DNA of 64,000 nucleotides from Candidatus Poribacteria bacterium (GTDB lineage Bacteria; Poribacteria; WGA-4E; WGA-3G), in NCBI GenBank assembly GCA_965261115.1, contig OZ253447.1, positions 3,845,287 to 3,909,286 of the forward strand. The letters run 5' to 3'. The notes beneath the pieces are model-generated. The model had not been told where the DNA came from and did not search any database. It saw only the letters and a list, made by a program, of their open reading frames with translations. The translations under genes and the position numbers were made by a program. The first letter of the stretch is position 1, and every line of letters starts with the position of its first letter. Shown here piece by piece: positions 6,499 through 48,830 of this stretch.

Positions 6499-6540
6499 TA
6501 TACACACATCGTAACATGCACATGTTACGATGTGTGTATA
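6499..6540. repeat. perfect 42-bp palindrome (20-bp arms, 2-nt centre)
   Basis: TATACACACATCGTAACATG-CA-CATGTTACGATGTGTGTATA was read directly. A second 6-bp hairpin (CAGGAC...GTCCTG) follows at about 6544-6563. The palindrome lies just downstream of the stop of the minus-strand gene 6566..6925. Confidence 0.9.
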
Positions 6541-19438: not shown

Positions 19439-19498
19439 GGCTGAAATGCTCCTTTGAATTGGGAATCGCGATCGACAAGAAACCCCCAAGCAAAAACA

Positions 19499-19575
19499 CT
19501 CGCTCCTACAGAGGAAGACATATCCATATATCGCGAGCACAGCTCGCTCCTACAGAGGAAGACATATCCATATAT
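19499..19575. repeat. 33-bp perfect direct repeat (period 44 bp)
   Basis: CTCGCTCCTACAGAGGAAGACATATCCATATAT occurs at 19499-19531 and again at 19543-19575. The linker forms the hairpin GCGAGC-ACA-GCTCGC with the start of unit 2. Confidence 0.9.
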
Positions 19576-19740
19576 ATAAAGTGAATATGTAAAACTAAAT
19601 ACCCTGATCTCCTTCGCGCTTTTGCTTGATTTTACACATCGTATCATGGTATTATTACTATAATATCACAGAAAACATAAATAGACACAATATTGTTTGC
19701 AAAGTGCAATTTAATCTTGTAGTTTTGGGAGCATAAATCC

Positions 19741-25321: not shown

Positions 25322-25372
25322 ATACGCTCGTAGGGGTTGGGTAACCCAACCCCTACGGTTCCGCGAGCGTAT
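25322..25372. repeat. REP-like palindrome P1 nested in an outer stem
   Basis: GTAGGGGTTGGGT-A-ACCCAACCCCTAC (25330-25356) is flanked by ATACGCTC (25322-25329) and GAGCGTAT (25365-25372). It is intergenic, downstream of the gluconolactonase gene. Confidence 0.85.
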
Positions 25373-27948: not shown

Positions 27949-27973
27949 AGCCGCGCTTTCCCATGTATGTTTG

Positions 27974-27999
27974 CTGGTGAGGTTCACCAACCTCACCAG
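27974..27999 (+). terminator. hairpin downstream of DUF1552 gene
   Basis: 11-bp stem CTGGTGAGGTT / AACCTCACCAG with loop CACC, 26 nt after the stop. No clean U-tract follows, so terminator function is uncertain. Confidence 0.4.
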
Positions 28000-28095
28000 C
28001 CAAAACTTTCGGGTTTATGCTTATCCCCGTAATCCCTAAATCCCATAAATCACAGTTCAGATACTAAAATGACAATCTCACGGCTGCAAGTTTCT

Positions 28096-28119
28096 AACCG
28101 CACCTACCGGCCCTGGGGA
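28096..28119. repeat. 24-nt repeat S1 (AACCGCACCTACCGGCCCTGGGGA)
   Basis: It matches S2 at 28376-28399 (AACCGAACCTACCGGGTCCGGGGA) at 20/24 positions. S1 is also the left arm of a 10-bp inverted repeat, TAACCGCACC...GGTGCGGTTA. Confidence 0.7.
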
Positions 28120-28215
28120 CGAACATTACACGCTAAATTGACATCTATGGTGCGGTTACACACCTCACCATAGGGGGCAATTTAGGGGTTTTGACAGCGT
28201 TTTACGGATCACAGA

Positions 28216-28288
28216 TATAAACATGCCGCCCTTACAGGGCTAAATGTTTTTTACATGCATTTCTATAAACATGTTGTCGCTACGCGAC
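28216..28288. repeat. two TATAAACATG boxes, each followed by a 5-bp hairpin with a TAC loop
   Basis: TATAAACATGCC-GCCCT-TAC-AGGGC (28216-28240) and TATAAACATGTT-GTCGC-TAC-GCGAC (28264-28288). The stem sequences differ but pairing is preserved. Confidence 0.7.
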
Positions 28289-28375
28289 TGAAGAGATTTC
28301 TGAAGTCTTCAAGGTTTCCGCGTAGTATCCGGTTCGGTTAGGAATGCAGATCGCATTTGGGTGAGTACACCGCAA

Positions 28376-28399
28376 AACCGAACCTACCGGGTCCGGGGA
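28376..28399. repeat. 24-nt repeat S2
   Basis: See S1. It is preceded by ACCGCAA, and it contains AACCGAACC, which is related to the dispersed CCTTGCGGTTCGGT motif (reverse complement ACCGAACCGCAAGG). Confidence 0.7.
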
Positions 28400-28766
28400 T
28401 CAGAGATATTTTTCTTAAATAGAAAAACAACTGATAAATTTTATCGAATTGTGAAATTTATTCAAGTCGGGTTCACTTCCAATTTTTATCTCTCCATCAA
28501 CATTTCCCCAACAACCAACCTCAAACAACCCAGAACCAATGCTCTCGTTCCGGATGGCAGTGATAGACTTTCTATCTAAAATCTTAGCATCAGATTTCCA
28601 AAGTTTAGAGGCTATAAACCCAGATGATGACTATATTTTTAGGCGAATATCATTACTTAGGAAAAACATAGTTGATATTGGGTTTCATTATCAATAAGCA
28701 CAACTGCCGAATATTTAGATACGGTTGATGGTTTTCTAAATTTTATCTAACTGAGTTATTGGGGAA

Positions 28767-30671
28767 TTACCAATCTTTAAAGGGGAATATTCGAGTTTCT
28801 GTTGCCATGCCGTAGAAACTCCATAAACTGCCCGCGACGAATTCACCGAGAATTAAACCGAGGAAAAAAGGTGCTGCTTTTCGGTGTAATTGCAAGCCGC
28901 CCTGTTTGATAATCAACCATTTTGCGACTGTGCTAATCATGAGTGAGATCCAGAGCCAGTTCATACACCAATCCGCTGCGCCGGAAACAGCATAGCCGAC
29001 AGCGTGGAAGGGCCACCAAAAGAACCGCATCCGTAGAAACATCAGGAGAAAGGTGAACCCCATTCCGATACCCATAAACGTCACTTCGGGAATATTCGTG
29101 CCTGTCGGGAAATTGAGTTGTTGCTGGAGTCGATTGAAAGGGTGGTGCGCGAAACTGCCCGATGAGCCGAAGCGGTAGACATCATGCAGATATGCCCAGA
29201 AAGAACCGATAGAACCGACGACTACCGCTAAGAGTATTACCCACACCAACGGTTTAGGATTAAATCGCGCTCGTGAAGCGAGTTGGAACCCCTCCAATTG
29301 GTGCGGCATCGGATGGCTACGGTGCGCCCGATTGAAGAAAAACAGAAAAGTGAGTGCTGTGAGGTTGGAACCGCCCATGCGACGTGAACCTAAAATCGCC
29401 GGTAAAGCGTAATCCGGTCCCATAAAGTGCAGGTCATGTGCAGGCGCGCCGGATTCAACCCGCATGCGCGTGATCCCCGTTGACAATGCGAAATACATCG
29501 CAAAGAAGGCGATACCGAGTGAAATACTGATGCCTATCTTCACAGAAAACGCTATGAGATAGATACATCCGAACACAATACCGAGGATAGCCGCACGATA
29601 CCGCATCGGTTCAACCGATTCGTCGAGGCTTGAACGTCCTGTGGTCACCTGTTTAAAGACTTCAGCGAGGTATTTACGGCTTGCCCATACTGCGAAAATT
29701 GCAAGTCCAAGATACGCGCCCAGCGACTGCTGTCGATCATAAGGGAATCCGGGTAAACCCCGAACGCCAACGATGGCACCACCGACCCGTTGCATCTTAC
29801 GGAACAGATAAAAGAACCAACAAGAAAACGACAAATCTAAGGGCATGAAGAATCCGAGCCCAATGACAAACGGATAGATAGAAAACGGTGTCCATCCGAT
29901 AGCATTCCACGGTTTTTCAGTGAAAAAGTGGCTGATATTCCGGAACCGGACACCGACAATTGGAATCGTTGGAAAGAGATAGCTGAGTCCGTTAATAAGG
30001 TTTAGGAGTGAGACGAGGATAAATGCTGTCCAAAAGACCCTGCCCCGGAAGAAGTTGGCACCGCTATCCCGCGTCATCTCTAACGGTAGTTGAATGATTG
30101 GATAGGCGAGTTTTTCGCGTTCTGTCCACTGTTTCCGTAGCACAACATTGATGCAGAGCATAACAAATACGAGTGCGAGAATAAAACTTGTCCACCACAG
30201 TGTCGGCCCCACCCATGCCCGTAAAACTTCAAGGTCATAAACTGTGGATTGCCCTTCATAAAACCCCTCTAAGATCCGTTTATCTTGGACTGTTCCCCAT
30301 GTCGGTATGTACCGGTATAGAAGTTCTCGCCACTCGTTTTCAGGTGTATCGAACCAGAAGACGTGTCCGATCATCGGGATAAGTACCTGTGCGTGGTCGT
30401 GTGATGCGATAGCACTCGCCATACAGAGCATCACATAGATGACGAGCAGCTCGCCGTGTGTCAATGCCCACTGCTGTTTGACGCGCCGCAGCAGTAGATT
30501 GAAGAGCGTAATAATAAACAGAAAGAAGACCGCATTGAAAAAAAGCGACATCGTTGTCGGAAAAAGTCCCCACCAAACCATTTCCGTATACATAATCCAG
30601 TAGCAGTTGATCGGGATAAGGATAAGTGCCAGTGTAACCGATTTTAGGGTGACACCGCGGGTCAGAGCCAT
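28767..30671 (-). CDS. large polytopic integral membrane protein, unknown function
   Basis: 634 aa with at least 12 hydrophobic segments and abundant W/F/Y. No transporter signature was recognised. It is the last gene of a tightly packed four-gene minus-strand unit. Confidence 0.55.
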   Translation of the reverse strand: MALTRGVTLKSVTLALILIPINCYWIMYTEMVWWGLFPTTMSLFFNAVFFLFIITLFNLLLRRVKQQWALTHGELLVIYVMLCMASAIASHDHAQVLIPMIGHVFWFDTPENEWRELLYRYIPTWGTVQDKRILEGFYEGQSTVYDLEVLRAWVGPTLWWTSFILALVFVMLCINVVLRKQWTEREKLAYPIIQLPLEMTRDSGANFFRGRVFWTAFILVSLLNLINGLSYLFPTIPIVGVRFRNISHFFTEKPWNAIGWTPFSIYPFVIGLGFFMPLDLSFSCWFFYLFRKMQRVGGAIVGVRGLPGFPYDRQQSLGAYLGLAIFAVWASRKYLAEVFKQVTTGRSSLDESVEPMRYRAAILGIVFGCIYLIAFSVKIGISISLGIAFFAMYFALSTGITRMRVESGAPAHDLHFMGPDYALPAILGSRRMGGSNLTALTFLFFFNRAHRSHPMPHQLEGFQLASRARFNPKPLVWVILLAVVVGSIGSFWAYLHDVYRFGSSGSFAHHPFNRLQQQLNFPTGTNIPEVTFMGIGMGFTFLLMFLRMRFFWWPFHAVGYAVSGAADWCMNWLWISLMISTVAKWLIIKQGGLQLHRKAAPFFLGLILGEFVAGSLWSFYGMATETRIFPFKDW

Positions 30672-35085: not shown

Positions 35086-38055
35086 ATGAAAAACGATGAT
35101 GCTCAGCTTATCCAACGCGTGCTTGATGGTGATGATACGGCGTTCTCCACACTCGTGAAAAAATATCAGCGATCCGTTCACGCGCTGGCGTGGCGGAAGA
35201 TCGGCGATTTCCATATCGCTGAGGATATTACACAAGAGACGTTCCTGAAAGCGTATCAGAGACTCTCTACACTGAAGGAACCACAGTCCTTTGCGAGTTG
35301 GCTTTATGTGATAACCGCACATCACTGCACAGCGTGGCACCGGAAAAATCGGACGTGGACGCAGTCGTTGGAAGACACGAGCAGCGCACACTTAGAAAAA
35401 GCGACGTATTCTGGATATGTCATTGCGGAGAATGAGCGAATGACAACGGAAGCACAACGCGAAGTCGTCAAAAAGTTGCTTGCGAAGTTGCAGGAGAGCG
35501 ATCGAACTGTCATCACGCTCTATTACCTTGGGGGAATGACGTACGAAGAGATCAGCGAGTTTTTAGGTGTGTCGGAGGCGGCGATTCGGAATCGTCTCTA
35601 CCGTGCACGTCGCCGTTTAAAGAAGGAGGAATCCATGATTAGAGAGGCTTTAGAACATTTCCAAATTACGCCAAATCTTACAAAGAATATCATGCGCGAG
35701 GTTTCGCGTCTGAAACCGGTTATTCCATCAGGCAGTAAATCGTTGGTGCCGTGGGCAATCGCCGTTTCCACAATAGTTGTAATATTTTTGATGTTAGGTG
35801 TCGGTAGTCAATATTTATCTCGTTTCCAGAAACCTTACAGTTTCGATGCTGTGTCAGAGATGACGATTGAACTCATTGAAGCCCCCGTCGTGCTAAACCT
35901 TGAATCCAAGCCAGATGTTCAGACGCAACTTGGAAGCACTGCTGTGTCCAGTATAAACGATGGGTTTGGTCAGCGACCTGATGAGATTTTACTTGCTGCT
36001 GCGCAGGTGGATGGAGAGGACGTTCCTATCTCGAAACAACAGTGGGTTCAGACGAACGAGCCTGGAGGCATAGTGGTAATGGCTTTGGCTGCTGTGCCTG
36101 AAGGCAATCTCTACACCGTTGATGGCATGGGTGATGTCTACAAATTATCAAACAATGAAAACGGATGGCAACGCATCTTCAACATTGGTTCACTGAATAC
36201 CCCTTGGGGTGGCAATCCGCCTATTGCGAAGTGGAACAATACCCTTTACCTCGTCCCGTCTAACGAACTTTTTGCTTCAACAGATGATGGCAAGACATGG
36301 AATTCACTATACGCTTGGCACGAAGGCTATAGATATCCGGTTGAATTGGTGCCGACAGATCAAGCATTTTATCTTGCTTTTGATAACGGTATTTTCCGTT
36401 CTGAGGATACCGGCAAGACATGGAAGCTAATGGACAATGGGTTGACGGGGAGAATTGAATCCTTCGTCAAGATCCAAAATACACTGTTTGCTGGAACAAG
36501 AACCGGACTCTACCGCTTAAACACTGACAACTGGCAACGCTTACAATTTCCGGTGTCTGAAGCCGAAACCATTCAATCGGTAGCGGCAACTCAAGAGAAA
36601 CTCTATGTTGCGGCACAGTTAGACTGGAGAAAACTGAGCAGAGATGATAGGCAGCAAATATCCGAAGGACAGAGACGCTCCTGGTGGATATTTCGTTCAA
36701 CTGACAAAGGAGATTCGTGGACAGATATAACCCCCACAGATGCTTGGACAATCCTTGGGTATCCACCACATATCATACTGATCGCTAAAGAAACAGTGCT
36801 CTTGGCAATAGGTATGAGTGACGGTGTCGTGGTTCGCTCAATTGATGGTGGGAATACATGGGTATACGAGGAGACTACCGGTATTTCTCCTACACGCTTC
36901 AGTGTAACGGAGGCTGTAGCATTCAACGAAAGCACTTTTTATGCAGCAGGAAACCGCGGTATTTATCGCTCTACCAATGGTGGCGTATCGTGGCACCGGT
37001 TTAATAGAAAGATGAAGAGTCGGGTTGATAACCTTATCACATTCAGAGAAACTGACAACGGACAGGGTACATCTGCAGCACTTTACGCGAGGGTCAACGG
37101 AGAGTTAGTTAAAACCACCGACTACGGTCATTCTTGGAAAACCGTTCAGGTGAAAATACCGATGAAAGCGCCTCACAGAGAAGATCCACCGCTTATTGAC
37201 GAAATAGTATCGTCTGGTGATGCGCTTTATGCAAAGGGTAAGGTTCCTTTTGAAGAAGTGCGCCTGTATCGCGTCTCTACAAATAGCAATACACTCATAC
37301 GGATTCAAGAAGTACCGGTCTTTTACCCGCTGGGGTTAATGGATAAGGCGTTCATTGAGCAGCTCCAAGGGCGTCTTCATGGTGCGACCCAGTTTTTCAA
37401 GCAGTTGGCACAACCGAATCTCCAGTGGTCAGATGAACTCATACGCGGTGGCTTGCGTGGCGCGTTTGCTGTTAGCGACGATACGTTCTATATGGAATAC
37501 AATTATAAACTCTTCCGATGGAGGCCTGGTGAGGCAGAATGGTACGATACCGAAATGGAAGAAACCTCTGAAATCTCAAGGGATCAGATGATGCGCGGAT
37601 TTGAACTTGCGGTTTCAGGGAGCACTGTCTATGTTGGAAAACGCGATGGACACCTCGTTGTCTCGTTTGATAAAGGAAATAATTGGCTTGATCTCACACC
37701 AAGCCTGCCGTTTCCTGTTAAACATTTCAACGATATTATGTTTGCGGGTTCCACAGTATATGTGGCAACCGACGCAGGCGTTATGACCTCAGATAATGGA
37801 AAAAACTGGCGTGCGATCACCGATGCTACAGGAACGTCTCTCACCGTGGATCGATTGGCAGTTGATGGCACAAACATTTATGGTGTTTCCAAAACGGGTA
37901 TCTATCGGTTGCAAACGGATACCGGTTTGTGGGATCAAATTGCACCTGAGATACCAGAAGCATCGGATTCGGTGACTTCATTTGATATTGATGGAAATGT
38001 GTTGTATGTCGGAACTTATGGCAGCGGCATGTTTTACTTCAATCTTAGCCAATAG
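35086..38055 (+). CDS. ECF sigma factor fused via one TM helix to extracytoplasmic BNR/Asp-box beta-propeller domain(s)
   Basis: Residues 1-183 form a complete sigma70 region 2 plus region 4 (DDTAFSTLVKKYQRSVHALAWRKIGDFHIAEDITQETFLKAY; MTYEEISEFLGVSEAAIRNRLYRARRRLK). The TM helix is LVPWAIAVSTIVVIFLMLGVG. At least 8 S-x-D-x-G-x-(T/S)-W Asp-box repeats follow (STDDGKTW, SEDTGKTW, STDKGDSW, SIDGGNTW, STNGGVSW, TTDYGHSW, SFDKGNNW, SDNGKNW). Confidence 0.8.
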   Translation: MKNDDAQLIQRVLDGDDTAFSTLVKKYQRSVHALAWRKIGDFHIAEDITQETFLKAYQRLSTLKEPQSFASWLYVITAHHCTAWHRKNRTWTQSLEDTSSAHLEKATYSGYVIAENERMTTEAQREVVKKLLAKLQESDRTVITLYYLGGMTYEEISEFLGVSEAAIRNRLYRARRRLKKEESMIREALEHFQITPNLTKNIMREVSRLKPVIPSGSKSLVPWAIAVSTIVVIFLMLGVGSQYLSRFQKPYSFDAVSEMTIELIEAPVVLNLESKPDVQTQLGSTAVSSINDGFGQRPDEILLAAAQVDGEDVPISKQQWVQTNEPGGIVVMALAAVPEGNLYTVDGMGDVYKLSNNENGWQRIFNIGSLNTPWGGNPPIAKWNNTLYLVPSNELFASTDDGKTWNSLYAWHEGYRYPVELVPTDQAFYLAFDNGIFRSEDTGKTWKLMDNGLTGRIESFVKIQNTLFAGTRTGLYRLNTDNWQRLQFPVSEAETIQSVAATQEKLYVAAQLDWRKLSRDDRQQISEGQRRSWWIFRSTDKGDSWTDITPTDAWTILGYPPHIILIAKETVLLAIGMSDGVVVRSIDGGNTWVYEETTGISPTRFSVTEAVAFNESTFYAAGNRGIYRSTNGGVSWHRFNRKMKSRVDNLITFRETDNGQGTSAALYARVNGELVKTTDYGHSWKTVQVKIPMKAPHREDPPLIDEIVSSGDALYAKGKVPFEEVRLYRVSTNSNTLIRIQEVPVFYPLGLMDKAFIEQLQGRLHGATQFFKQLAQPNLQWSDELIRGGLRGAFAVSDDTFYMEYNYKLFRWRPGEAEWYDTEMEETSEISRDQMMRGFELAVSGSTVYVGKRDGHLVVSFDKGNNWLDLTPSLPFPVKHFNDIMFAGSTVYVATDAGVMTSDNGKNWRAITDATGTSLTVDRLAVDGTNIYGVSKTGIYRLQTDTGLWDQIAPEIPEASDSVTSFDIDGNVLYVGTYGSGMFYFNLSQ
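35623..35637 (+). promoter_or_regulatory. internal Shine-Dalgarno AAGGAGG + in-frame ATG (codon 184) at the sigma/tether junction
   Basis: AAGGAGG (35623-29), 5 nt, then ATG (35635-37), in frame. The same arrangement occurs at 41520-41534 and 38481-38495. Confidence 0.5.
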
Positions 38056-38291
38056 TAAAACAAATTGTAGGGAGGGGCTATTTGCGCCTTGCGAATGAAG
38101 TGCCTCCCTATTTTCCATTCATCCAATCACCCAATTAACTTCCCGACTCGATATTGAAGTTCGCATTCACTATCATCTTCAGATGATGTTCAAGTTTTCG
38201 CGCGGACGGAATCCACCGAATTGCCTCAAGAATAAGTTTCTCCTATAAACGGACTTCTTTCGGGGTCATTCAATTTTCAAATTGTCTGAAT

Positions 38292-38325
38292 CGCGGAGGA
38301 CGCGGAGGGCGCGGAGGACGCGGAT
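38292..38325. repeat. 9-bp tandem repeat (GCGGAGGAC x ~3.7)
   Basis: CGCGGAGGACGCGGAGGGCGCGGAGGACGCGGA was read directly. Intergenic. Confidence 0.85.
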
Positions 38326-38430
38326 TTTCGTGTTTAGGGATGCCAAAATCATAAGGGAATTTAGCTGTTTTCCAGAGAATTGAATGGCCCTGTACTTCTT
38401 TTCGGACGTATGCACTTTTGGTTGGGTTTA

Positions 38431-38439
38431 TGGTATAAT
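38431..38439 (+). promoter_or_regulatory. extended -10 promoter element (TGGTATAAT) for the sigma-less paralog
   Basis: TGnTATAAT match, 54 nt upstream of ATG 38493. Confidence 0.55.
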
Positions 38440-38480
38440 TCCATTAACAGATGAGATGCGTCTTTACCGTGTATGTCAGC

Positions 38481-38495
38481 AAGGAGGAACCCATG
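38481..38495 (+). promoter_or_regulatory. SD AAGGAGG + ATG start of the sigma-less paralog
   Basis: AAGGAGG, then AACCC, then ATG. This is identical to the internal site at 41520-41534. Confidence 0.7.
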
Positions 38496-40841
38496 ATTCG
38501 GAATGCTTTAGATAATTTTCAAATCACACCGAATCCCGGCAAGAACGTGATATATGAGATGCCGCGCGCCAAGTTTGCTGCTTCCTCTGATGGTAAACCG
38601 TTTGTGCGGTGGGTAATCACTGCTTTAGTGATGGTCGTGCTGCTGATCCAGACACATCGGGTTTTAGCCAACCCAGAGGACTACACCCGATGGGGTTTGC
38701 CTGAAGGTGCAAAAGCGCGGATCGGGAAAGGCACCTTCACTGATATGCAGTTGTCCAGCGATGGTACTCGCTTGGCGATTGCGAGTTCCGCGGGTGTATG
38801 GCTTTATGATGTTAGTACTGGTGATGAAATTGCGCTTATCACAGAGAATACGGATTTAATCGGATTGGTGGCATTTTCTCCTGACGGTGCAACACTTGCT
38901 ACTGCTGGTGGGGACAACGAATGTCGTATCTGGGATGTTGAAAGTCAGAAACTGCTACTAACATTCAAGCTACCTGATTATTGGATCCATACATTGACAT
39001 TCTTGGATGATGGAAGAACCCTTGTCGGTGAGGGATCGATTGACAAAGCTTCACACGATCTGATTGGTGGAGATCCTTGGAGATGGGATGTCCCTAAGGT
39101 CTGGATGTGGGATGTTTCCTCTGGAAAGCAGTTAGACACTTTCACCACCAAGTTACCGAGATTTAATCCGCTTAAAGATGCACGGACCAGTGTTAGGGTG
39201 AAGGCATTTGCGGATGGTACGCGTGTTATCTTTGCTTTTGAGAACAGAGACGGAACGATTAGTGTTAAAGATGGACGTACGAATCGCGAGATAGTTACAC
39301 TTCCAAAACCTGAGAGACAGGTAAGAGCGTTCAGTTTTACGCCAGATGGCAGAAGGCTTGCGGTTGCGACTTCCAGAAACGTACATCTCTGGGATCTTGT
39401 TGATACAGGAGAACAGTTGGCAACGTTTCCAAAAAGGGTCGCGGATTTCGAGGGGTATCCAGCGATACTTGCATTCTCAAAAGATGGAAAAACCCTTGCT
39501 GTTGCCGGGTTAGATGACATTGAGATATGGAATATGGATACATATTCGCAGGTTGCTACACTTGAAAATAAGAGTGGTGGTTTGTGGGAATTTGTGTTAT
39601 CGGCGGATGGTGCAACCGTTGTAACTATGAATCACCACGGCACAGTGGATTTATGGTCGGCACAGACCGGCAAACATGAACGTACCTTGACGACGGGATG
39701 GACCAGTAGGTTTTCCACGTTGGTGTTCTCGCACGATGGGAAAACGATTGCGAGCAGCACGGGTAGCAAAATCCATCTGTGGGATACAAACACTTGCACC
39801 GAAAGATTGCGGATGCAACTTCCCGGACGCGTTGAAGGTGTAAACAAACACATTGAACCGAATTTGCGAGCTGCTGTGCCCATGGTACGTGGGAGCGAAA
39901 TCGCCAGTTTAGCATTTTCTGAATATAACACGCCTCTTGCCGCTTCTGCATATAGTACCACCCTCGCCGTTTGTACCGTTTCCGACAAAGTTGAAATATG
40001 GGATGCCGCTACAGGAAAATATAATACTGATTACACGCTCCCGGGCAGACTTCGTAGGGTGCCGCATGGCCCATTGACTGATGATTTAGGTACTGTGCCA
40101 GTGCCGCGAACCCCGGCGATATACCATATCTACGCAACATCATTTGAGAGCACAGGGCATACCGTACATGCAGCCGCTTTCTCACCAAACAGTGAAAAAC
40201 TGGCTATTGAAATCCAGAATGGTGTGATGGAGATATGGGACATTCTTACCCAAAGACGCTTATGCACGCTCCCAGGTCAAGTCCCAAACTGGAGTGCGGC
40301 GTTCACGTTTACTTTCGCATTTACACAGGATGGTGAGGTGCTTGCAATCGGCAAAGGAACGGAGGTCCACTTGTCGAATACCGATACTGGCGAGACATTT
40401 GCTACATTCAGTGTTGCTAAGGAGAAACTGGATTTGATAGATAAATTACAAAAATTTCTCGGCTTGAAGCGTTTTGATGTGCCAGTGGGTGCTGTGGCAT
40501 TGGGACGAGCTGGGGAACCTCTCATCGTTGCTGCGAGTGCAGGTAAAACAATCTATTTATGGGATGTCGCGACCCGGAAATCTGTAATGCTTGAAGGGCA
40601 CACAAGTGAAGTCTGTAAATTAGCATTCGCGCCCAACGCGACTTTTCTGGCAAGTGGAGATATAGATGGCACAATTCACCTGTGGTTGCTACCTGCCGGA
40701 CACAAACTTGCCACCTTCAAGCCATACGTGAGCCCCGTTAAAGAATTGGTGTTTGCGCCTGATGGGAAAACCCTCGCAAGCACAAACCTGTATTCCCGCT
40801 TTGCTGGAACGATACTCCTATGGGACGTTCCACCTAAATAA
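38493..40841 (+). CDS. single-pass membrane WD40 beta-propeller protein (sigma-less paralog of the fusion proteins)
   Basis: It starts MIRNALDNFQITPN..., homologous to the tether MIREALEHFQITPNL of both fusions. The TM helix is FVRWVITALVMVVLLI. WD40-like blades follow (VAFSPDGATLATAGGDNECRIWDV; LAFAPNATFLASGDIDGTIHLW). Confidence 0.8.
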   Translation: MIRNALDNFQITPNPGKNVIYEMPRAKFAASSDGKPFVRWVITALVMVVLLIQTHRVLANPEDYTRWGLPEGAKARIGKGTFTDMQLSSDGTRLAIASSAGVWLYDVSTGDEIALITENTDLIGLVAFSPDGATLATAGGDNECRIWDVESQKLLLTFKLPDYWIHTLTFLDDGRTLVGEGSIDKASHDLIGGDPWRWDVPKVWMWDVSSGKQLDTFTTKLPRFNPLKDARTSVRVKAFADGTRVIFAFENRDGTISVKDGRTNREIVTLPKPERQVRAFSFTPDGRRLAVATSRNVHLWDLVDTGEQLATFPKRVADFEGYPAILAFSKDGKTLAVAGLDDIEIWNMDTYSQVATLENKSGGLWEFVLSADGATVVTMNHHGTVDLWSAQTGKHERTLTTGWTSRFSTLVFSHDGKTIASSTGSKIHLWDTNTCTERLRMQLPGRVEGVNKHIEPNLRAAVPMVRGSEIASLAFSEYNTPLAASAYSTTLAVCTVSDKVEIWDAATGKYNTDYTLPGRLRRVPHGPLTDDLGTVPVPRTPAIYHIYATSFESTGHTVHAAAFSPNSEKLAIEIQNGVMEIWDILTQRRLCTLPGQVPNWSAAFTFTFAFTQDGEVLAIGKGTEVHLSNTDTGETFATFSVAKEKLDLIDKLQKFLGLKRFDVPVGAVALGRAGEPLIVAASAGKTIYLWDVATRKSVMLEGHTSEVCKLAFAPNATFLASGDIDGTIHLWLLPAGHKLATFKPYVSPVKELVFAPDGKTLASTNLYSRFAGTILLWDVPPK

Positions 40842-40929
40842 GACCTTCACCTATAGACAATCATTATTTCGGTTCCTGAAACTTACTATTCAAGAAATTG
40901 CAGAATTCTGCAACCGTTTTCGCCCTAAG

Positions 40930-40938
40930 TCGCGTCAC
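40930..40938 (+). promoter_or_regulatory. conserved TCGCGTCAC box (second copy)
   Basis: As at 35030-35038. Here it is preceded by TGCAAC about 18 nt upstream, a loose ECF-like -35 AAC. Confidence 0.3.
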
Positions 40939-40982
40939 AAGGTATTAATGTGAAATACTAAAAACTCCTCTGGAGATATTCG

Positions 40983-43931
40983 ATGAGAAATGACGATACT
41001 CGACTGGTTCAATGTGTCCTTGAAGGCGATGATGCCGCTTTCGCTGAACTGGTGAAAAAGTACCAGCAGCCGGTTCACGCGCTTGTGTGGCGGAAGGTTG
41101 GAGATTTCCATGTCGCTGAGGAGATTACACAAGACACTTTCCTGAAAGCATACCAGAAACTGACGACACTCAAGGAGCCGCAGCGTTTTGCGAGTTGGCT
41201 TTATGTGATAGCCACAAACCGTTGTAAGGCATGGCTGCGTAGGAAGCGTTTATGGATGCAGTCGCTGGATGCCACAGGTGGCATGCAGTTGGAAAAGGCT
41301 ACATATTCTGGGTATGTCATTTCGGAGAACGAACGCGTAACAGCAGAATCACAGCGCGAAGTCGTCAAAAAGCTGCTCGCGAAGTTACAGGAGAGTGAGC
41401 GGACTGTCATGACACTCCACTATTTCGGGGAGATGACGTGTGAAGAGATTAGCAAGTTTTTGGGTGTATCGGTGGGTGCGATTAAGAGTCGCCTCAGCCG
41501 TGCGCGCCACCGCTTAAAGAAGGAGGAACCCATGATTCGCGAGGCTTTAGAACATTTCCAAATCACACCGAATCTTACAGAGAATATCATGCGCGAGATT
41601 TCGCGTCTGAAACCGGTTACCCCGTCAGGCGGTAAACCGCTCGTGCCGTGGGCAATCGGTGTTTCCACAATAGCAGTCGTCCTTTTGATGTTAGGTATCG
41701 GAAACCATCAATACCTGTCGCGTTTTCAAAAACCGTATAGTTTCGACGCACCATCAGAGATGGCAGTTGAACTCATTGAAGCACCGATTGTGCTGAACCT
41801 TGAAGCCAAACCGGATATTCGGACGCAGTTTGGAAGTGTCAATACACCGAGCGAGGGTGCTATTTCCAACCAGCAACCTAACGACGTTTCGGCATCGGTT
41901 GCAGACGCAGAATCAGATGAGACATCTGAAAACCACGCACATTGGAAGTTGCCCAAAGCGGCGAAAGCGCGCTTCGGAAAAGGTGGGATTACCACAATCC
42001 AGTTTTCGCCAGATGGCACCCTACTTGCAGTCGGTAGCAATATCGGGGTATGGCTGTATGATGTGGAAACAGGTGAAGAGAAATCTCTGTTTGGCAGCGG
42101 CGTGTGTGAAGCCCTCAGCTTTTCACCTGATGGCCGTTTCCTTACCGTTTCTTCTCGGGAGACGCTCATCCAATTGTGGGAGATTGCTACCGAGCGCGAA
42201 GTGCCGCTTATCGACTTGTACGGGGCTGCTTCCGTATTGCGATTCTCTTCGGATGGGAAAACGCTTATCGGTTTGAGTAGTTCCGGTGCAATTACCCGAT
42301 TGAATATTGAGAACGGGAAAGGGAAAACAAAACACCTCAAAACTGGATTATTCGGGATCGGTCTCTTTAGTTCGGAGGATTTTCAGGGTGTCTACGCGAT
42401 GACAAGCGATAAAATCGCGATTGGAAAAGCGGACGGGACGATCCAGTTATGGGACGTAGCAACCCGTAAAAAGTTATCAACGCTCAGAGGACACATAGAT
42501 TTGCCGCTGCAACCGTTGAATAAACCTGTGCATCGCATATTTAAAAATAATTGGGTCTTAGCAGTGGCGTTTTCGCCGGATGGCACGCGTCTCGCCAGTG
42601 GCAGCACAGATACGACAGTCCGATTGTGGGATACCACTGGTGACACGGATTGGATGACGCTGCAGAAACATACTGGACCGACAAATGTGCTGGCGTTTTC
42701 ACCCGATGGAAAAATGCTTGCCAGTGGCAGTACCGATAAAACAGTGCAATTGTGGGACACCACCACTGGCGACCCCCTCGCGACGCTCACTGGACATATC
42801 AACGGTATTACTGCGTTAGCATTTTCACCCGATGGTCGGACACTCGTCAGCGGGAGTACGGATGGCACAATCCGATTCTGGCAGACAGCGACTGGGGCTC
42901 CAGTGGATACCCTTATCACTGGGCACACACACTCCATAAAAGCGGCGACCTTCTTTGAGGATAGTTCCACACTTGTCAGCGCGGCGTTTAACGGTGAAAT
43001 TACCTTTTGGAATGTGGAAACATCGCAAAAGTCTACTGTCCAAAATAGTAGACATCGGGATTGGTATTCAGCAGTGGCGTTTTCGCCAGATGGCACGAAA
43101 CTCGTCAGTGCAGCGGCGGATGGTACTATAGCTTTCGGTAAGTTTCCTACTACTACAAAGCCAGATAATCTAATTCGGTTGACGGATGTATCGACTGGAG
43201 ACGAACTTGCGAGATTGCCGCGAGGCACCGAAAAACTCATCTTTTCTCCTGACGATAGAACTAAAACTGTAGCGATTACTAATCTTGACATTCGTTTGTG
43301 GAATACGGAAACAGGCGATGAATTGATAATTCCTGTTAATGATGACCTGAAACCCGGCTTTCGCGGCAATCTACCAATGATTTTGGCAGCGGCGTTTTCA
43401 CCGGATGGTAGATGGCTTGTGAGTGGCACTACAGAAGGCGACATCCGAATGTGGGACGTTGCGACCGGTGAAGTTTTGACTGTCTTTGCAGAACCGACAG
43501 AACAAGAGAATCTGGGGCATATTTCGGCAGTGGCGTTTTCACCGGACCGCGCCTTGCTCGCTGCTGGCACACACACGCAACTCCATTTATGGGATGTGCG
43601 TACCGGTCATAAAATTTTTTCGGTTAGTACTGTGCATAAACGCGGTTGGGGTATATACCATGATTATTCAAGACCGTTGGTGTTTTCGCCGGATGGCACA
43701 ATTCTTATCAATGGGCATAACAGCGGTACAATCCAGTTATGGGATGTTGAGACAGGAGATAGAATTGCTGTGCTTGATGGACATACACAGGAAGTGGAGA
43801 CGTTGAAATTTTCACCTGATGGGGAAACACTGGTTAGTACGGCGCAGGATGGCACAATTTTCTTGTGGGATTGGGATGAGGCTATCACCGGTTCGGCCAA
43901 CACCGACGAATATAAGGGGTTAAAGAAATAA
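40983..43931 (+). CDS. ECF sigma factor fused via one TM helix to extracytoplasmic WD40 beta-propellers
   Basis: Residues 1-183 are a complete ECF sigma, highly similar to 35086's. The TM helix is LVPWAIGVSTIAVVLLMLGIG. More than 12 WD40 repeats follow (AVAFSPDGTRLASGSTDTTVRLWD, VLAFSPDGKMLASGSTDKTVQLWD, ALAFSPDGRTLVSGSTDGTIRFWQ ...). Confidence 0.85.
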   Translation: MRNDDTRLVQCVLEGDDAAFAELVKKYQQPVHALVWRKVGDFHVAEEITQDTFLKAYQKLTTLKEPQRFASWLYVIATNRCKAWLRRKRLWMQSLDATGGMQLEKATYSGYVISENERVTAESQREVVKKLLAKLQESERTVMTLHYFGEMTCEEISKFLGVSVGAIKSRLSRARHRLKKEEPMIREALEHFQITPNLTENIMREISRLKPVTPSGGKPLVPWAIGVSTIAVVLLMLGIGNHQYLSRFQKPYSFDAPSEMAVELIEAPIVLNLEAKPDIRTQFGSVNTPSEGAISNQQPNDVSASVADAESDETSENHAHWKLPKAAKARFGKGGITTIQFSPDGTLLAVGSNIGVWLYDVETGEEKSLFGSGVCEALSFSPDGRFLTVSSRETLIQLWEIATEREVPLIDLYGAASVLRFSSDGKTLIGLSSSGAITRLNIENGKGKTKHLKTGLFGIGLFSSEDFQGVYAMTSDKIAIGKADGTIQLWDVATRKKLSTLRGHIDLPLQPLNKPVHRIFKNNWVLAVAFSPDGTRLASGSTDTTVRLWDTTGDTDWMTLQKHTGPTNVLAFSPDGKMLASGSTDKTVQLWDTTTGDPLATLTGHINGITALAFSPDGRTLVSGSTDGTIRFWQTATGAPVDTLITGHTHSIKAATFFEDSSTLVSAAFNGEITFWNVETSQKSTVQNSRHRDWYSAVAFSPDGTKLVSAAADGTIAFGKFPTTTKPDNLIRLTDVSTGDELARLPRGTEKLIFSPDDRTKTVAITNLDIRLWNTETGDELIIPVNDDLKPGFRGNLPMILAAAFSPDGRWLVSGTTEGDIRMWDVATGEVLTVFAEPTEQENLGHISAVAFSPDRALLAAGTHTQLHLWDVRTGHKIFSVSTVHKRGWGIYHDYSRPLVFSPDGTILINGHNSGTIQLWDVETGDRIAVLDGHTQEVETLKFSPDGETLVSTAQDGTIFLWDWDEAITGSANTDEYKGLKK
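41520..41534 (+). promoter_or_regulatory. internal SD AAGGAGG + in-frame ATG (codon 184)
   Basis: AAGGAGG (41520-26), AACCC, then ATG (41532-34). The offset from the gene start is 549 nt, exactly as in the 35086 gene. Confidence 0.5.
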
Positions 43932-44793: not shown

Positions 44794-44898
44794 ATTACGT
44801 AGGACTTACGCATTTTTCCATGATAACGAACGTATGACGCACTGCAGGCGGGGTTTAAAACCCCGCCTGCGAGGGAGGCTGCGTGAGTCCTATTACGT
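44794..44898. mobile_element. 91-bp MITE-like element (44801-44891) with 7-bp target-site duplication
   Basis: TIRs AGGACTTACGCA (44801-12) and TGCGTGAGTCCT (44880-91) match at 11/12. They are flanked by a perfect direct repeat ATTACGT (44794-800 and 44892-98). Confidence 0.65.
44844..44870. terminator. GC-rich hairpin inside the MITE, between convergent genes
   Basis: GCAGGCGGGG-TTTAAAA-CCCCGCCTGC. The 10-bp stem is extendable by TTT/AAA. It sits between the LamG gene (+) and the 1256-aa gene (-). Confidence 0.6.
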
Positions 44899-47800
44899 TA
44901 AAGTTCCGCACTGACGGTCATCTCCAGACGGTGTTCGGGTTTTCGCTCTTTCGTTGAGAGTAGACGGTAATTGAGTCGCAGTAGTAGATCGGTGAATTTC
45001 CGTAATCTGTAGTCTGCTATCGTCCGGATTTCGTGGCTGATGCCTTCGTAGAACGTATATTGCGCGAAGGGTATGCCGCCACTGCTTTTGCCGTAGCCGA
45101 GTTTGTAGTTGAAATCAATGCGTCCCTTACCGATGAGACTGTAGGTGACGCGGCTCTCAAACGAAAAGGTGCGCGTTTTGGCTTCGGGTTCCTCGTCAAG
45201 TTGCTCCTCGTCGGTTGTCCGTTTATAGCCACTGATACCGCTCCATCGTAGGGTCTTACTCAACTGGTATCGGATATTTAGTTCAGTTATCTGCTCAAAC
45301 TGACGCAAGTCTGAGATAGGTGTCGGAGAAGGCTCTCTCATTTCCTTGGTAGGATCGGTTTCTTGTGCGAGGTCTTCAAAATCGAATTGGCTATATTTTT
45401 CGGTTTCCCGACGTTGTTCCCTGTTCGCGCCAACAGAGAGACGTTGGGTCGGATTCATAGAGAAGCCAACATCCCATGTGTTGTGGTGTCTGTGGCGTTC
45501 TTGGTTATTAATCCGCTTGTTGAGCGTCTCCCCTGCCCGGAAGTTAAGTTCAAAACTGAACGCCGTTGAGGGGACGAATTCGAGTCGATGGTGTTGGTTC
45601 ACTCGCCCGAAAACCGTATCTGAACCTTGTAGATTTTGGAGTAGATATAGCGAAACAGCATCTTCTACCTCCTGTTCCTCAGTCAGCCAGAGTCGTGTTT
45701 GACCTCTGAGCGCGTTCAGAAACCATTCCATCCGAGAAGGACGCACGCTTTGCTGTGATGCTGGCGGTGTTGGCCGTAAACTATCACCTTTCAACATCGC
45801 CTCTCGTTGCAGCTGTTGTTGCCGCGCCCGGTTGCGCCGTGCGAAAAACTGGCGGGGTTGAAAACGGAGGCGAAAATCCGCATCTACCGCCGTTGTTGGT
45901 TTATCACCGACGTGTTGGTGGATTTTGATGTAAGTGCCTTCTTCGGCATCCTCTACGTAGTGTAGATCGTCCAACTTCACGTAATATCCGTCCCCGGGTT
46001 GGAGCCGGACACCGGTATGTGGATGGATGTTGGTATAGACTTCGCGGCGTTGGCTTGTCAATTTTTTATCTAATTCGTAGGTGAGTTCTATGTCAATTGC
46101 CCGGCTTAGGGGTGTCAACTGAATATTAATATCTGCGAGTTGCGTCGTTGTATTCGCACCGAGATCGGTGTGTGCTTTGAGCGTCCGACGGGCGAGGTTT
46201 GCGGTCAGATTCATACCGCCGCTGAGAAAGGATTTCTGTTGTGAAAAGATGCCGACTTTCCATGTGCGTCCGGTCGTATTCCGTTGCCAATCCGATAAAC
46301 CGATCGGTTCGTCATCAACAGTGAGCAACGGCTCTTTGGCGTAAGCCTCCTCAAGTTCGTAGCTGGTATTCAGAGATGCCCAACTAAAATCAACGAGATT
46401 GATACGTCCAATTGCGCGGTTCCGCTTTCGGTTGAGCGTGGCATTACGCGCCTCGTTTGATTCCACCCTGCCCAATGTTCCCAAAATTCTGAACGGTCCG
46501 AGCGGATAAGCTAAGTTGCCTTCCTGCCGTAACTTCTGCTGCGATTGTGTCCGTGTTGAATCCTCATCCTCCACACGCGAACTACTCCGATAGTCATCCC
46601 AACGGAGATTCGGTAATTTCTGTAGGGGCGAGGTCACCTCGCCCCTACGGCCTTTAGACAGGTTTTGTTCCGATGCAGGGGTTGCTTTCTCTTGCCCACT
46701 GATGCGCGTGTTTCCGCGTCTGGTGGTAGCGGTTATACCTCCACTGCCTGACCGGCGATTGAAGTTCACACCCCAATTGAAATTATTGCGGATCGTTGCG
46801 TTTGTCGTTGGTGATGCTTCTGTTCCGTCCGCCAACCCCCCTTTATCCCCCCTTATCAGGGGGGTGGGTGGTTCTTTCTCTTCGCTTCTACCGATGCCAG
46901 CGTCAACCGCCAACCAATCTGTTGGAATCAGTTGGATGTCAAAGTTCGCAGTTCTCTCATCTCGTGCGGTTTGTGAAGGCGAGGTAACCTCGCCCCTACC
47001 AAACAGGAACGCGTCATCAAAACCCTCTTTGGTGTATTGCGTTTCATAACGGGAGCGATTCCGATTACTACTTGACGCACCGACAGGGACAAAGTCGGCG
47101 TCCATCGCTCGGATGTCGAGATTTGTGTTCAATTTAGGTCGCAGTTTATCTGTCCATGTCGCAAAGTCCCAATCCGCGTAACCGGTCAGTTTCCACGCCT
47201 GACTCACCTCTTTACGGTCTATGGTGGAATAGGTGTTCTTATCAAGATTGCTGTAGGCGAGTTCACCTTCGATCCACGCTTTTTCAGTAATGTTCACGCG
47301 GCTTTCTAACCCCCATACAGTATGTTTCTGGGGTGCTGTGAGCAGCGACCCATCTTCTTCGGGGTCAAGGATATTTTGACGGAGTGCCTCGATATCGGTC
47401 TCTTCAAGTATGATTAAAGCCTGTTCCGGTTCCTTCAGGTCTGCCTCAACGGCATAGGAAGCACCGAGTGTTATCCATTCTCCGTAGGGGCGAGGTAACC
47501 TCGCCCCTACACTGAGTCCATAGAGATTTTGTTGATATGCGCGATCTTCTGGGATGTATTCAAAGTCGATCCGAATTGTGTCGTTGCTTGTGATGAGGTG
47601 TTTGCTGTTGAACTCGACGATTGGGTCTCCATATTCTCGGATGATGTAATCGTTGTTTTCACCGCGCCGCATCCTTTCACCATTCAGCCAGACGATTTCA
47701 CTGCCTGCCTTTACGATGACGTATTGCCCATCGACGGTGAGCCGATATTCGCTCCGTCCTTCTTCGCCGCGAAGGACTAAGCTGGTAGACTGCCCTTTCG

Positions 47801-48668
47801 GAATGGCACTTGGAATAAGGTGGAAGCTCCCCCACTTGAAATCGCCTTCGACTTGTATGCCTTCCAAGGCACGTGGAAAAAAGATGAATTCAGAGGTGCC
47901 AAGCGACCCCTCAAAGTCGCCTAAGGTGCCTTTCATGTTTGGGTGTGTGATACGAATCAATTTCTGATCGATGTCTTGAATATTTTCGGTTGTTCCTTCG
48001 GGTTGAATAGGTAGATCTTGGTCGGATAGTAGTGCGAGGACGCTGATGTTTTCGGAGACTTTACCTTCTACATTGACACGGAGTTCCTGATTCTGTGAGA
48101 TGCTACGTCCGCTGCCGAGCGAAATACCGAATGTTTGGCTACCGGACACTTCGAGTTGTGATGTCCCGTCACCTGTAGAGGAGGTGCTTCCAAGTTCACC
48201 GAAAGGCTGTCCAGTCACCTTTTCAGATTCGTCAGTTTTGGGGAGGAGACCATCAGTAGATTCTGTTGATGGAGTTTGCGTGCCATAAAGGTCGCGTTTG
48301 TAGACCTCTTTAATTGCGAAAGGCAGCGTGCGGTAGGTTATCTTTAACTTGTAAGGGGTGGTCGTAGCATCGGGTGCTTCTATAGTGATTTTTCCTGAAT
48401 AGAAATCGATTTGATAGTCTATACTTCGCACGAGGGTTTTTCCATCCACTTCGATTAACTGTTCAGTGTCAGGGAGGATTGGTGGGTACTTCACCGTGAA
48501 TTCCCGCTCACCCGTTTTTAGTTCAATGGATTCGGTTTTCTGGAGGACGGAAAAGGTCGGGAGTTCGAGGGCTTTAGTTTTGTCGTCAGCGGATTCTTGT
48601 GCCGTGCTTCCGGAACGTGGTAGCAGGCACAAACAGAAGGAGACAAGGAACAAAAGTGGGGTACGCAT
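44898..48668 (-). CDS. very large secreted protein, probable outer-membrane beta-barrel
   Basis: 1256-codon uninterrupted ORF with signal peptide MRTPLLFLVSFCLCLLP..STAQ. It has long stretches of alternating hydrophobic/polar residues rich in Y/R/N/T/G. The C-terminal strand is RLEMTVSAEL. No named family was recognised. Confidence 0.55.
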   Translation of the reverse strand: MRTPLLFLVSFCLCLLPRSGSTAQESADDKTKALELPTFSVLQKTESIELKTGEREFTVKYPPILPDTEQLIEVDGKTLVRSIDYQIDFYSGKITIEAPDATTTPYKLKITYRTLPFAIKEVYKRDLYGTQTPSTESTDGLLPKTDESEKVTGQPFGELGSTSSTGDGTSQLEVSGSQTFGISLGSGRSISQNQELRVNVEGKVSENISVLALLSDQDLPIQPEGTTENIQDIDQKLIRITHPNMKGTLGDFEGSLGTSEFIFFPRALEGIQVEGDFKWGSFHLIPSAIPKGQSTSLVLRGEEGRSEYRLTVDGQYVIVKAGSEIVWLNGERMRRGENNDYIIREYGDPIVEFNSKHLITSNDTIRIDFEYIPEDRAYQQNLYGLSVGARLPRPYGEWITLGASYAVEADLKEPEQALIILEETDIEALRQNILDPEEDGSLLTAPQKHTVWGLESRVNITEKAWIEGELAYSNLDKNTYSTIDRKEVSQAWKLTGYADWDFATWTDKLRPKLNTNLDIRAMDADFVPVGASSSNRNRSRYETQYTKEGFDDAFLFGRGEVTSPSQTARDERTANFDIQLIPTDWLAVDAGIGRSEEKEPPTPLIRGDKGGLADGTEASPTTNATIRNNFNWGVNFNRRSGSGGITATTRRGNTRISGQEKATPASEQNLSKGRRGEVTSPLQKLPNLRWDDYRSSSRVEDEDSTRTQSQQKLRQEGNLAYPLGPFRILGTLGRVESNEARNATLNRKRNRAIGRINLVDFSWASLNTSYELEEAYAKEPLLTVDDEPIGLSDWQRNTTGRTWKVGIFSQQKSFLSGGMNLTANLARRTLKAHTDLGANTTTQLADINIQLTPLSRAIDIELTYELDKKLTSQRREVYTNIHPHTGVRLQPGDGYYVKLDDLHYVEDAEEGTYIKIHQHVGDKPTTAVDADFRLRFQPRQFFARRNRARQQQLQREAMLKGDSLRPTPPASQQSVRPSRMEWFLNALRGQTRLWLTEEQEVEDAVSLYLLQNLQGSDTVFGRVNQHHRLEFVPSTAFSFELNFRAGETLNKRINNQERHRHHNTWDVGFSMNPTQRLSVGANREQRRETEKYSQFDFEDLAQETDPTKEMREPSPTPISDLRQFEQITELNIRYQLSKTLRWSGISGYKRTTDEEQLDEEPEAKTRTFSFESRVTYSLIGKGRIDFNYKLGYGKSSGGIPFAQYTFYEGISHEIRTIADYRLRKFTDLLLRLNYRLLSTKERKPEHRLEMTVSAEL
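46622..46648. repeat. REP-like palindrome P2 inside CDS
   Basis: GTAGGGGCGAGGT-C-ACCTCGCCCCTAC (13-1-13, perfect). It is translated as RRGEVTSPL on the minus strand. Confidence 0.9.
46847..46864. repeat. C/G-tract hairpin inside CDS
   Basis: CCCCCCT-TATC-AGGGGGG, preceded by a second CCCCCCTTTAT. It is translated within ...PLIRGDKGGLADG. Confidence 0.8.
46973..46999. repeat. REP-like palindrome P3 (left arm decayed) inside CDS
   Basis: GTGAAGGCGAGGT-A-ACCTCGCCCCTAC. The left arm matches at 10/13. It is translated as GRGEVTSPS, in the same frame as P2. Confidence 0.85.
47484..47510. repeat. REP-like palindrome P4 inside CDS
   Basis: GTAGGGGCGAGGT-A-ACCTCGCCCCTAC, perfect. It is translated in a different frame, as VGARLPRPY. 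Confidence 0.9.
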
Positions 48669-48830
48669 TAATAGTTGTCAGAAGATTAGCAGTCAGCCAT
48701 CAGCATGCTTCGCAGTGAGAACAGTCAGTAAGAAACCGATGTGGTGGTTCAACGCATCTCACATGCGACACACCGACAGCTCAACCAATGGTTTCCGATG
48801 TCCACTATATTTGGGAATCGAGGTTCCCTC

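Follow-up and report, generated by a model that had tools for sequence, protein, structure and literature searches.

In-frame palindromes of the double-foot GTAG REP type in a predicted outer-membrane barrel gene of Candidatus Poribacteria

How can a long bacterial gene hold several copies of the same palindrome and still remain open from end to end? This question is raised by a stretch of 64,000 nt from Candidatus Poribacteria bacterium (contig OZ253447.1 of assembly GCA_965261115.1, positions 3,845,287-3,909,286), which we call the window. It encodes a 1256-aa protein, predicted to be an outer-membrane beta-barrel. In this gene an earlier note had spotted two perfect 27-bp palindromes and a third, imperfect one, and had taken them for mobile REPs (repetitive extragenic palindromes) of the GTAG type. 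We conclude, with a probability of roughly 0.8, that the three palindromes are copies from one family of double-foot GTAG REPs, which entered this gene recently and at separate times and are translated within it.

A pattern scan recovered both perfect palindromes, each made of two 13-nt arms around a single base (GTAGGGGCGAGGT-N-ACCTCGCCCCTAC, at 46622-46648 and 47484-47510), and the pattern had no match in 100 dinucleotide shuffles of the window. The third copy, GTGAAGGCGAGGTAACCTCGCCCCTAC at 46973-46999, has three mismatches to the palindrome. All three lie within the open reading frame (ORF) 44898..48668 on the minus strand, separated by irregular distances of 324 and 484 bp. Codon mapping verified that they are in frame and that two frames are used, two copies giving GEVTSP and one GARLPRPY. 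Only two of the palindrome's frames are free of stop codons (the third has a TAG), and palindromy makes this the same on both strands. Each perfect copy, folded as a single DNA strand, gives a 12-bp stem of -14.1 kcal/mol (z -6.4 to -6.8), and none of 200 shuffles was as stable. At the stem base, GGG and CCC provide three G-C pairs right after the GTAG/CTAC foot. The earlier note had described the 46973 copy as having a decayed left arm. The copy is indeed imperfect, but most of the apparent decay is a junction: bases 46973-46976 (GTGA; TCAC on the gene strand) are kept host sequence, also found in the empty allele. On the gene strand the REP ends in ...CGCC(C/T) and is followed by this TCAC. 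The far CTAC foot was never present, leaving only one foot, and a single C>T is the sole difference between this copy and the allele of the related locus L122.

Other identities were considered and rejected: a CRISPR array, given three irregularly spaced copies inside a conserved ORF; an intrinsic terminator, as no T-run follows any copy on either strand; and an assembly or adaptor artefact, as copies occur in independent assemblies and isolates, in frame and with graded decay. Rfam and tRNA scans of the window gave no matches.

The palindromes correspond to a described class of REPs. Quentin et al. 2018 (PMC6006769) report that subclass 2.4 of TnpA_REP, also called RAYT (REP-associated tyrosine transposase), has long REPs whose stems are built on a base of three G-C pairs. 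The same authors describe a 'double foot' form, with GT[AG]G at the 5' end and C[TC]AC at the 3' end, and its in-frame insertion into RAYT genes. The copies at 46622 and 47484 carry both feet, the long stem and the three G-C pairs. Because feet, stem base and stable hairpin fit this description, we assign the element to the subclass 2.4 double-foot type, in line with the GTAG-type identity first proposed for it. The mobile unit would be a 12-bp G+C-rich hairpin with a GTAG-GGG ... CCC-CTAC stem, of a type tied to HUH-Y1 subclass 2.4 transposases. The extragenic location of classical REPs is lacking, all three window copies being inside the ORF. The earlier note had held REPs to be extragenic by definition and in-frame palindromes to be famous in only a few lineages; both statements are too narrow. 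The GTAG-tagged REP superfamily spans several phyla, with REPs reported within coding regions and in frame in several species (Di Nocera et al. 2013, PMC3733652), and the double-foot type is documented in RAYT genes (PMC6006769).

The exact 27-mer is also widespread beyond this locus, as expected of a mobile REP. It occurs in more than 120 stretches of a collection of species-representative genomes, with several copies per Poribacteria genome, and its hosts include Poribacteria, Anaerolineae, Zixibacteria, Acetothermia, Nitrospirota, Chloroflexi, cyanobacterial isolates and others. Of its 13 arm bases, seven make up the shared foot, and this identity across phyla could reflect transfer or convergence. 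We found no copy in 2.9 million viral contigs, and a literature search for the sequence string returned no relevant paper. The flanks of 123 copies are unrelated, except for a pyrimidine before GTAG and a purine after CTAC (Y/GTAG..CTAC/R). By a crude ORF call, 17 of the 27 copies in Poribacteria loci lie within ORFs, versus 24 of 96 in other phyla. The Poribacteria genes concerned include an ABC (ATP-binding cassette) ATPase, where the 27-mer lies between the two nucleotide-binding domains, glycine cleavage protein P, a WD40 protein in which it replaces the usual SPDG loop, a BatA/VWA protein and a GHMP kinase.

We then compared the host protein with its homologs (458 at E<1e-5), using the best 120, which are 72-95% identical and, where the source is named, all from Candidatus Poribacteria. 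GEVTSP is found in 20 of these 120 orthologs and VGARLPRPY solely in the window protein. The peptide is missing from the other 100 and the copies are polymorphic, so the alignment bears out the proposal that the copies are derived. Empty sites are seen in orthologs about 92-95% identical, where they read LS-SVFKLP-GEW (47484), LF-DTAGI-SQ (46973) and KG-AQLLK-KLP (46622); the DNA of close relatives is about 94% identical over 20 kb of common gene order. Locus L121 lacks all three copies; L122 carries the one at 46973 alone, L123 those at 46622 and 46973, and copies 1 and 2 are both absent from L124. Copy 3 (47484) occurs in the window alone among the 120 orthologs. The same site was struck independently in orthologs P0057 and P0060, in the other frame (CRGEVTSPLQIA), and in P0081, where a near-identical variant of the REP at 25330, differing in its centre base, is read as VGVGLPNPY. 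REP-derived peptides occupy at least 14 positions across the 120 orthologs, many of them decayed (e.g. RRGEGTSSLQ near residue 954). Filled and empty alleles coexist at six sites among genomes 90-95% identical, which points to mobility.

These patterns also bear on two explanations in which the copies are kept for a function. The hairpins might be retained for a role as nucleic acid, such as pausing of translation or transcription, mRNA stability or protein binding, rather than being neutral passengers. In favour, the hairpin has high stability, two of the copies have remained perfect, and roles in mRNA stability and termination have been reported for REPs elsewhere (PMC3733652, PMC6006769). 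We nevertheless consider such retention very unlikely: the copies come and go between close orthologs, their positions vary by lineage, and older copies decay freely in both DNA and protein. Moreover, the decayed copies show no purifying selection on stem pairing through compensatory changes, and the T-run of a terminator is missing from all of them. Alternatively, RGEVTSPL and VGARLPRPY could be a functional protein motif encoded by incidentally palindromic DNA, as the recurrence of the peptide at many sites of the family might suggest. The frame and ortholog data already contradict this, and we give it almost no credence: the same DNA is read in two frames, it is mostly intergenic in other phyla, identical nucleotides occur in unrelated proteins, and most orthologs lack the peptide.

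How did the copies enter the gene? The earlier note had assumed a clean, frame-preserving insertion of 27 bp, or nine codons. This is not what we observed. In none of six DNA-level comparisons of filled and empty alleles was the insertion clean; 12-23 host nt were swapped for 23-35 nt (Table 1). At the three window sites the gene grew by a net 9, 9 and 15 bp, having lost 14-18 host bases at each. At the protein level, about ten more sites show 3-8 residues swapped for 8-12. A clean gain of 27 bp would also be in frame, so selection for the frame alone does not explain the lack of clean insertions. There are two possible readings: a short tract of the target is lost through integration, or only events with a concomitant deletion survive selection on loop length. 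In the first case, REPs of the double-foot class would not simply be added: integration itself would swap the hairpin for 12-23 nt of target DNA, an idea that we regard as tentative and rather doubtful. A possible route would be the ligation of the excised hairpin to the nascent strand, with synthesis resuming a short distance downstream. For the REP at 25330, we found no usable intergenic pair of filled and empty alleles, the best ortholog of a neighbouring gene being 88% identical with a different synteny.

The replacement of host bases brings in another rival, namely that the REPs were brought by errors of repair or replication (template switching, or short-patch gene conversion, from another REP copy after a break or at a stalled fork), with no transposase. 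Such copying would account for host bases being replaced instead of moved aside, as happened in all six DNA events and in the ten or so seen in proteins; it is also consistent with the copy that lacks a terminal CTAC and with the lack of a RAYT in the 342 kb of Poribacteria DNA examined. However, the removed segments offer no evident template. Their local alignment to the REP does not exceed that of all gene windows, making them no more REP-like than random gene windows (Fisher p 0.60). This also speaks against REP-like targets, whether microhomologies or foot-like sites, even if several junctions look foot-like by eye (e.g. CGCAG..CTAA at site 1). Nor do the removed segments form hairpins: they fold no better than shuffles (z -1.5, +0.9 and +0.1), which led us to reject a swap of hairpin for hairpin. 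With neither homology nor a hairpin in them, nothing was seen that could guide conversion. In addition, the inserted tracts are almost purely REP, without donor flanks, the flanks of the 123 copies being unrelated, and RAYT genes are physically linked to the 27-mer elsewhere. We thus hold copying errors to be an unlikely source of these REPs.

Table 1. Coordinates of the REP copies, of a related variant and of the host gene, and exchanges observed between filled and empty alleles.
Feature	Position	Strand	Sequence, or host nt removed	Reading or product, or nt gained
REP copy 1	46622..46648		GTAGGGGCGAGGTCACCTCGCCCCTAC, perfect 13-1-13 double-foot	minus-strand reading RRGEVTSPLQ, aa 674-683
REP copy 2	46977..46999		23/27 nt of element	GRGEVTSP, aa 557-564
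REP copy 3	47484..47510		GTAGGGGCGAGGTAACCTCGCCCCTAC, perfect 13-1-13	other open frame, VGARLPRPY, aa 387-395
Related double-foot REP variant	25330..25356		GTAGGGGTTGGGT-A-ACCCAACCCCTAC	intergenic, 59 bp past stop of SGL gene
Host gene	44898..48668	-		1256-aa secreted protein, predicted outer-membrane beta-barrel, conserved in Poribacteria, large uncharacterised family
Junction, window	46622		removed 15 nt (GCGCAGCTGCTAAAA)	gained 30 nt (CGTAGGGGCGAGGTGACCTCGCCCCTACAG)
Junction	46973		removed 14 nt (ATACAGCAGGCATT)	gained 23 nt
Junction, window	47484		removed 18 nt (CAGTGTCTTCAAACTGCC, SVFKLP)	gained 27 nt
Junction, L125	47484 site		removed 20 nt	gained 35 nt
Junction, L124	residue ~954		removed 23 nt	gained 32 nt
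Junction, neighbouring WD40 gene, L122 vs window	~42966		removed 12 nt	gained 30 nt

Other repeats occur in and around the gene. At 46836-46864, the same ORF holds a second G+C-rich repeat (CCCCCCTGATAAGGGGGGATAAAGGGGGG on the gene strand, read as TPLIRGDKGG), which is present or absent among close orthologs and likewise substitutes for host sequence. In the neighbouring ORF 40983..43931, the window is empty at about 42955-42975 (AAGTGTGGAACT), and the orthologous sigma-70/WD40 gene of L122 has a copy of the 27-bp REP family discussed here (CAGTAGGGGCGAGGTCACCTCGTCCCTATG); the copy in the WD40 gene of L121 is the same as that of L122, interrupted by a further insertion. An 18-bp segment found only in the window (GAGGGAACCTCGATTCCC, 48812-48830) creates a REP-like GTAGGAGGGAA-CCTCGA-TTCCC in the spacer upstream of the 1256-aa gene. 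L121 and L122 share a 139-bp intergenic segment with a GTAG palindrome (GTAGGGGAAACCGGGTTACCCAGTTCCCCCTAC), aligned to about 43913 of the window, where the genes abut instead. The intergenic spacers of these two loci (e.g. L121 ~3300-3500 and 4200-4400) also hold arrays of 7-bp units (TTATAAG/AGTTATA) and longer composite inserts, absent from the window. Between the convergent ends of the 1256-aa gene and a Laminin_G_3 gene lies a further perfect 13-1-13 palindrome (GCAGGCGGGGTTT-N-AAACCCCGCCTGC, 44844-44870), of REP-like architecture but with GCAG/CTGC feet. It is kept at the same place in L121 and L122 and is absent from all other loci examined; it may be either a hairpin that terminates transcription in both directions or a REP of some other class that has become fixed.

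Where in the protein did the REPs land? Pfam and PDB-sequence profile searches with the host protein gave no match. An exhaustive search gathered the family into 2201 representative clusters, mostly of 1100-1200 aa. N-termini in the family, including that of the window protein, resemble signal peptides. Of 105 full-length relatives, 92 have F as their last residue, as in an aromatic C-terminal beta-signal, unlike the window protein, which ends in ...MTVSAEL. A structural model of residues 60-1256 built with close orthologs only had a pLDDT (predicted local distance difference test) of 29. With diverse relatives, the model of residues 60-720 reached a mean pLDDT of 81 and a pTM (predicted template-modelling score) of 0.75, with many antiparallel strands of 13-15 residues. 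Its top fold matches are all outer-membrane barrels (Occ/OprD porins, MOMP, maltoporin, ushers, LptD), with E-values of 3e-6 to 1e-4 and template-modelling scores of only 0.13-0.46. The host is therefore predicted to be an outer-membrane beta-barrel-like protein. In this model, copy 3 (model residues 328-336) would form the tip of the beta-hairpin made by strands 321-334 and 337-351, copy 1 (615-624) would lie at the end of a low-confidence loop and copy 2 (498-505) within another low-confidence loop. Aligned with the orthologs, each of the three sites falls in a short variable patch flanked by blocks conserved at 93-97%. The suggestion of a loop-rich outer-membrane host thus agrees with the predicted structure. 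The persistence of the copies would be due to their landing sites, a hairpin tip and two surface loops, and to their being read in one of two stop-free frames, and the same circumstances would lead to their translation as protein. The outcome would be 8-10 extra or replacement residues, VGARLPRPY or (R)RGEVTSPL(Q).

In other phyla, the 27-mer lies within or beside a RAYT gene in four of 120 loci. It sits inside the RAYT gene of L022, after the HuH motif, where it is read as VGARSPRPY, and follows the HuH motif of a second RAYT copy in L096. L114 has it in a RAYT fragment, 1.4 kb from a full gene, and L111 has it 13 bp upstream of the RAYT start codon. The RAYT proteins of these loci match NCBIfam NF047646 (REP-associated tyrosine transposase) with E-values of 1e-14 to 8e-21, matches that fall short of the family's curated cut-off, and their closest PDB match is 4ER8, E. 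coli TnpArep. A RAYT profile search retrieved over 8000 relatives, of which many bear the name RayT. Among the 120 best, three (P0122, which is the L022 protein, P0153 and P0168) have VGARSPRPY or RRGEVTSP following the HuH motif, and no named protein is from Poribacteria. We infer that a RAYT acting on single-stranded hairpin DNA moved the copies in the Candidatus Poribacteria genome.

It is important to highlight the observations that weigh against this interpretation. The earlier note had proposed looking for a RAYT/TnpA_REP gene, and we found none in the window or in 342 kb of Poribacteria DNA, either by tblastn or with a profile of 120 RAYTs. Pairwise identity among the RAYTs that accompany the identical 27-mer is only 33-47%, which makes the link of the exact 27-mer to one enzyme lineage loose. 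A RAYT that passes the NCBIfam cut-off (89 bits vs 80) is encoded in locus L042, whose contig shares 75-81% identity with a Poribacteria locus; this gene is flanked by a different, single-foot class of REP (GGTGCGGTTAGGAAACCGCACCTACCGG). Genomes with the 27-mer also hold other stems built on the same feet. The lack of any clean insertion in the six comparisons is not predicted by a peel-and-paste model of the IS200/IS605 type. Finally, the mechanism of REP dissemination is not known, while RAYT nuclease activity has been shown in vitro (PMC3686654).

Relics of the single-foot GTAG class (…AACCGCACCTACCGG; GGTTCGGTTAGGA…AACCGAACCTACCGGG) occur in the window at 28080-28400, within an 800-bp non-coding gap, and are 91% identical over 70 bp to the repeats flanking the L042 RAYT. 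The gap (27948-28767) holds no RAYT coding remnant, only REP-like repeats of that other class. We rejected IS200/IS605 ends, or a palindrome-associated transposable element, as there is no adjacent Y1 transposase or TnpB in the window and the copies stand alone. L122 carries a TnpB (OrfB_IS605/Cas12f-like) gene at 19084-20355, where its gene order with the window breaks.

Two further observations concern the rest of the window. A 42-bp near-perfect palindrome at 6499-6540, with two 20-nt arms and a 2-nt spacer (TATACACACATCGTAACATG/CATGTTACGATGTGTGTATA), is located in non-coding DNA. The region 35086-43931 is taken up by three very large genes, of 989, 796 and 982 aa; their orthologs in L121 and L122 encode ECF (extracytoplasmic function) sigma-70 with WD40 beta-propellers, or WD40 alone, and in the window WD40 content was scanned for in ORF 40983..43931 only.

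How do these REPs compare with known systems of palindromic repeats? RPE-1 type elements, among the Rickettsia palindromic elements, are roughly 100-150 bp long and confined to Rickettsia, and have no known link to RAYTs. We rejected identity with them, as the unit here is 27 bp, has no conserved flanks and is hosted by Poribacteria, Chloroflexi and others. The two are alike in being in-frame palindromic repeats in ORFs that stay functional, going by what is cited from that literature in PMC3733652. REPINs of Pseudomonas and E. coli (Bertels and Rainey 2011, PMC3116915) are, like these REPs, RAYT-associated, hairpin-forming, multi-copy and non-autonomous. They are inverted doublets of single-foot REPs and extragenic, whereas the elements described here are single self-symmetric units, often intragenic in Poribacteria. 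A closer parallel is found in the intragenic GTAG REPs of, for example, Opitutus terrae (PMC3733652), which are also palindromes that add short peptides to a variety of proteins, where linkers or loops are believed to tolerate them. In those REPs, the GTAG tag at one end is not base-paired, and dimers or groups account for more than half of the inserts within genes, whereas here we observed single perfect palindromes in which GTAG pairs with CTAC. The closest match is the double-foot REPs of subclass 2.4, or Bertels group 4 (PMC6006769), which have the same feet, G-C stem base, long stem, scattered phyla and insertions that preserve the ORF; the 27-mer after the HuH motif, in or beside RAYT genes, is likewise as described there. 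The differences are that the REPs here sit in ordinary genes of the Poribacteria chromosome rather than in the RAYT gene, that this phylum does not appear in that text, that the window has no RAYT, and that the junctions replace host bases.

The element class and in-frame REPs are hence already described, and what this locus adds is the alleles before and after acquisition, the mapping to loops and a consistent signature of replacement. Exact sequences before and after at least six independent acquisitions, each losing a short host tract, provide a concrete and testable signature. How REPs spread is still an open question (PMC3686654), and this record of junctions bears on it. For annotation, RGEVTSPL and VGAR[LS]PRPY are useful flags of REP-derived segments. 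In Poribacteria, the same 27-mer is translated in ordinary enzymes and envelope proteins, which makes REPs a recurrent source of loop variation in the phylum. If integration itself does swap the hairpin for target DNA, the pairs of filled and empty alleles in Poribacteria would be the first natural junction record of the entry of RAYT-type REPs into new sites, and Poribacteria would be a lineage whose REPs routinely remodel protein loops.

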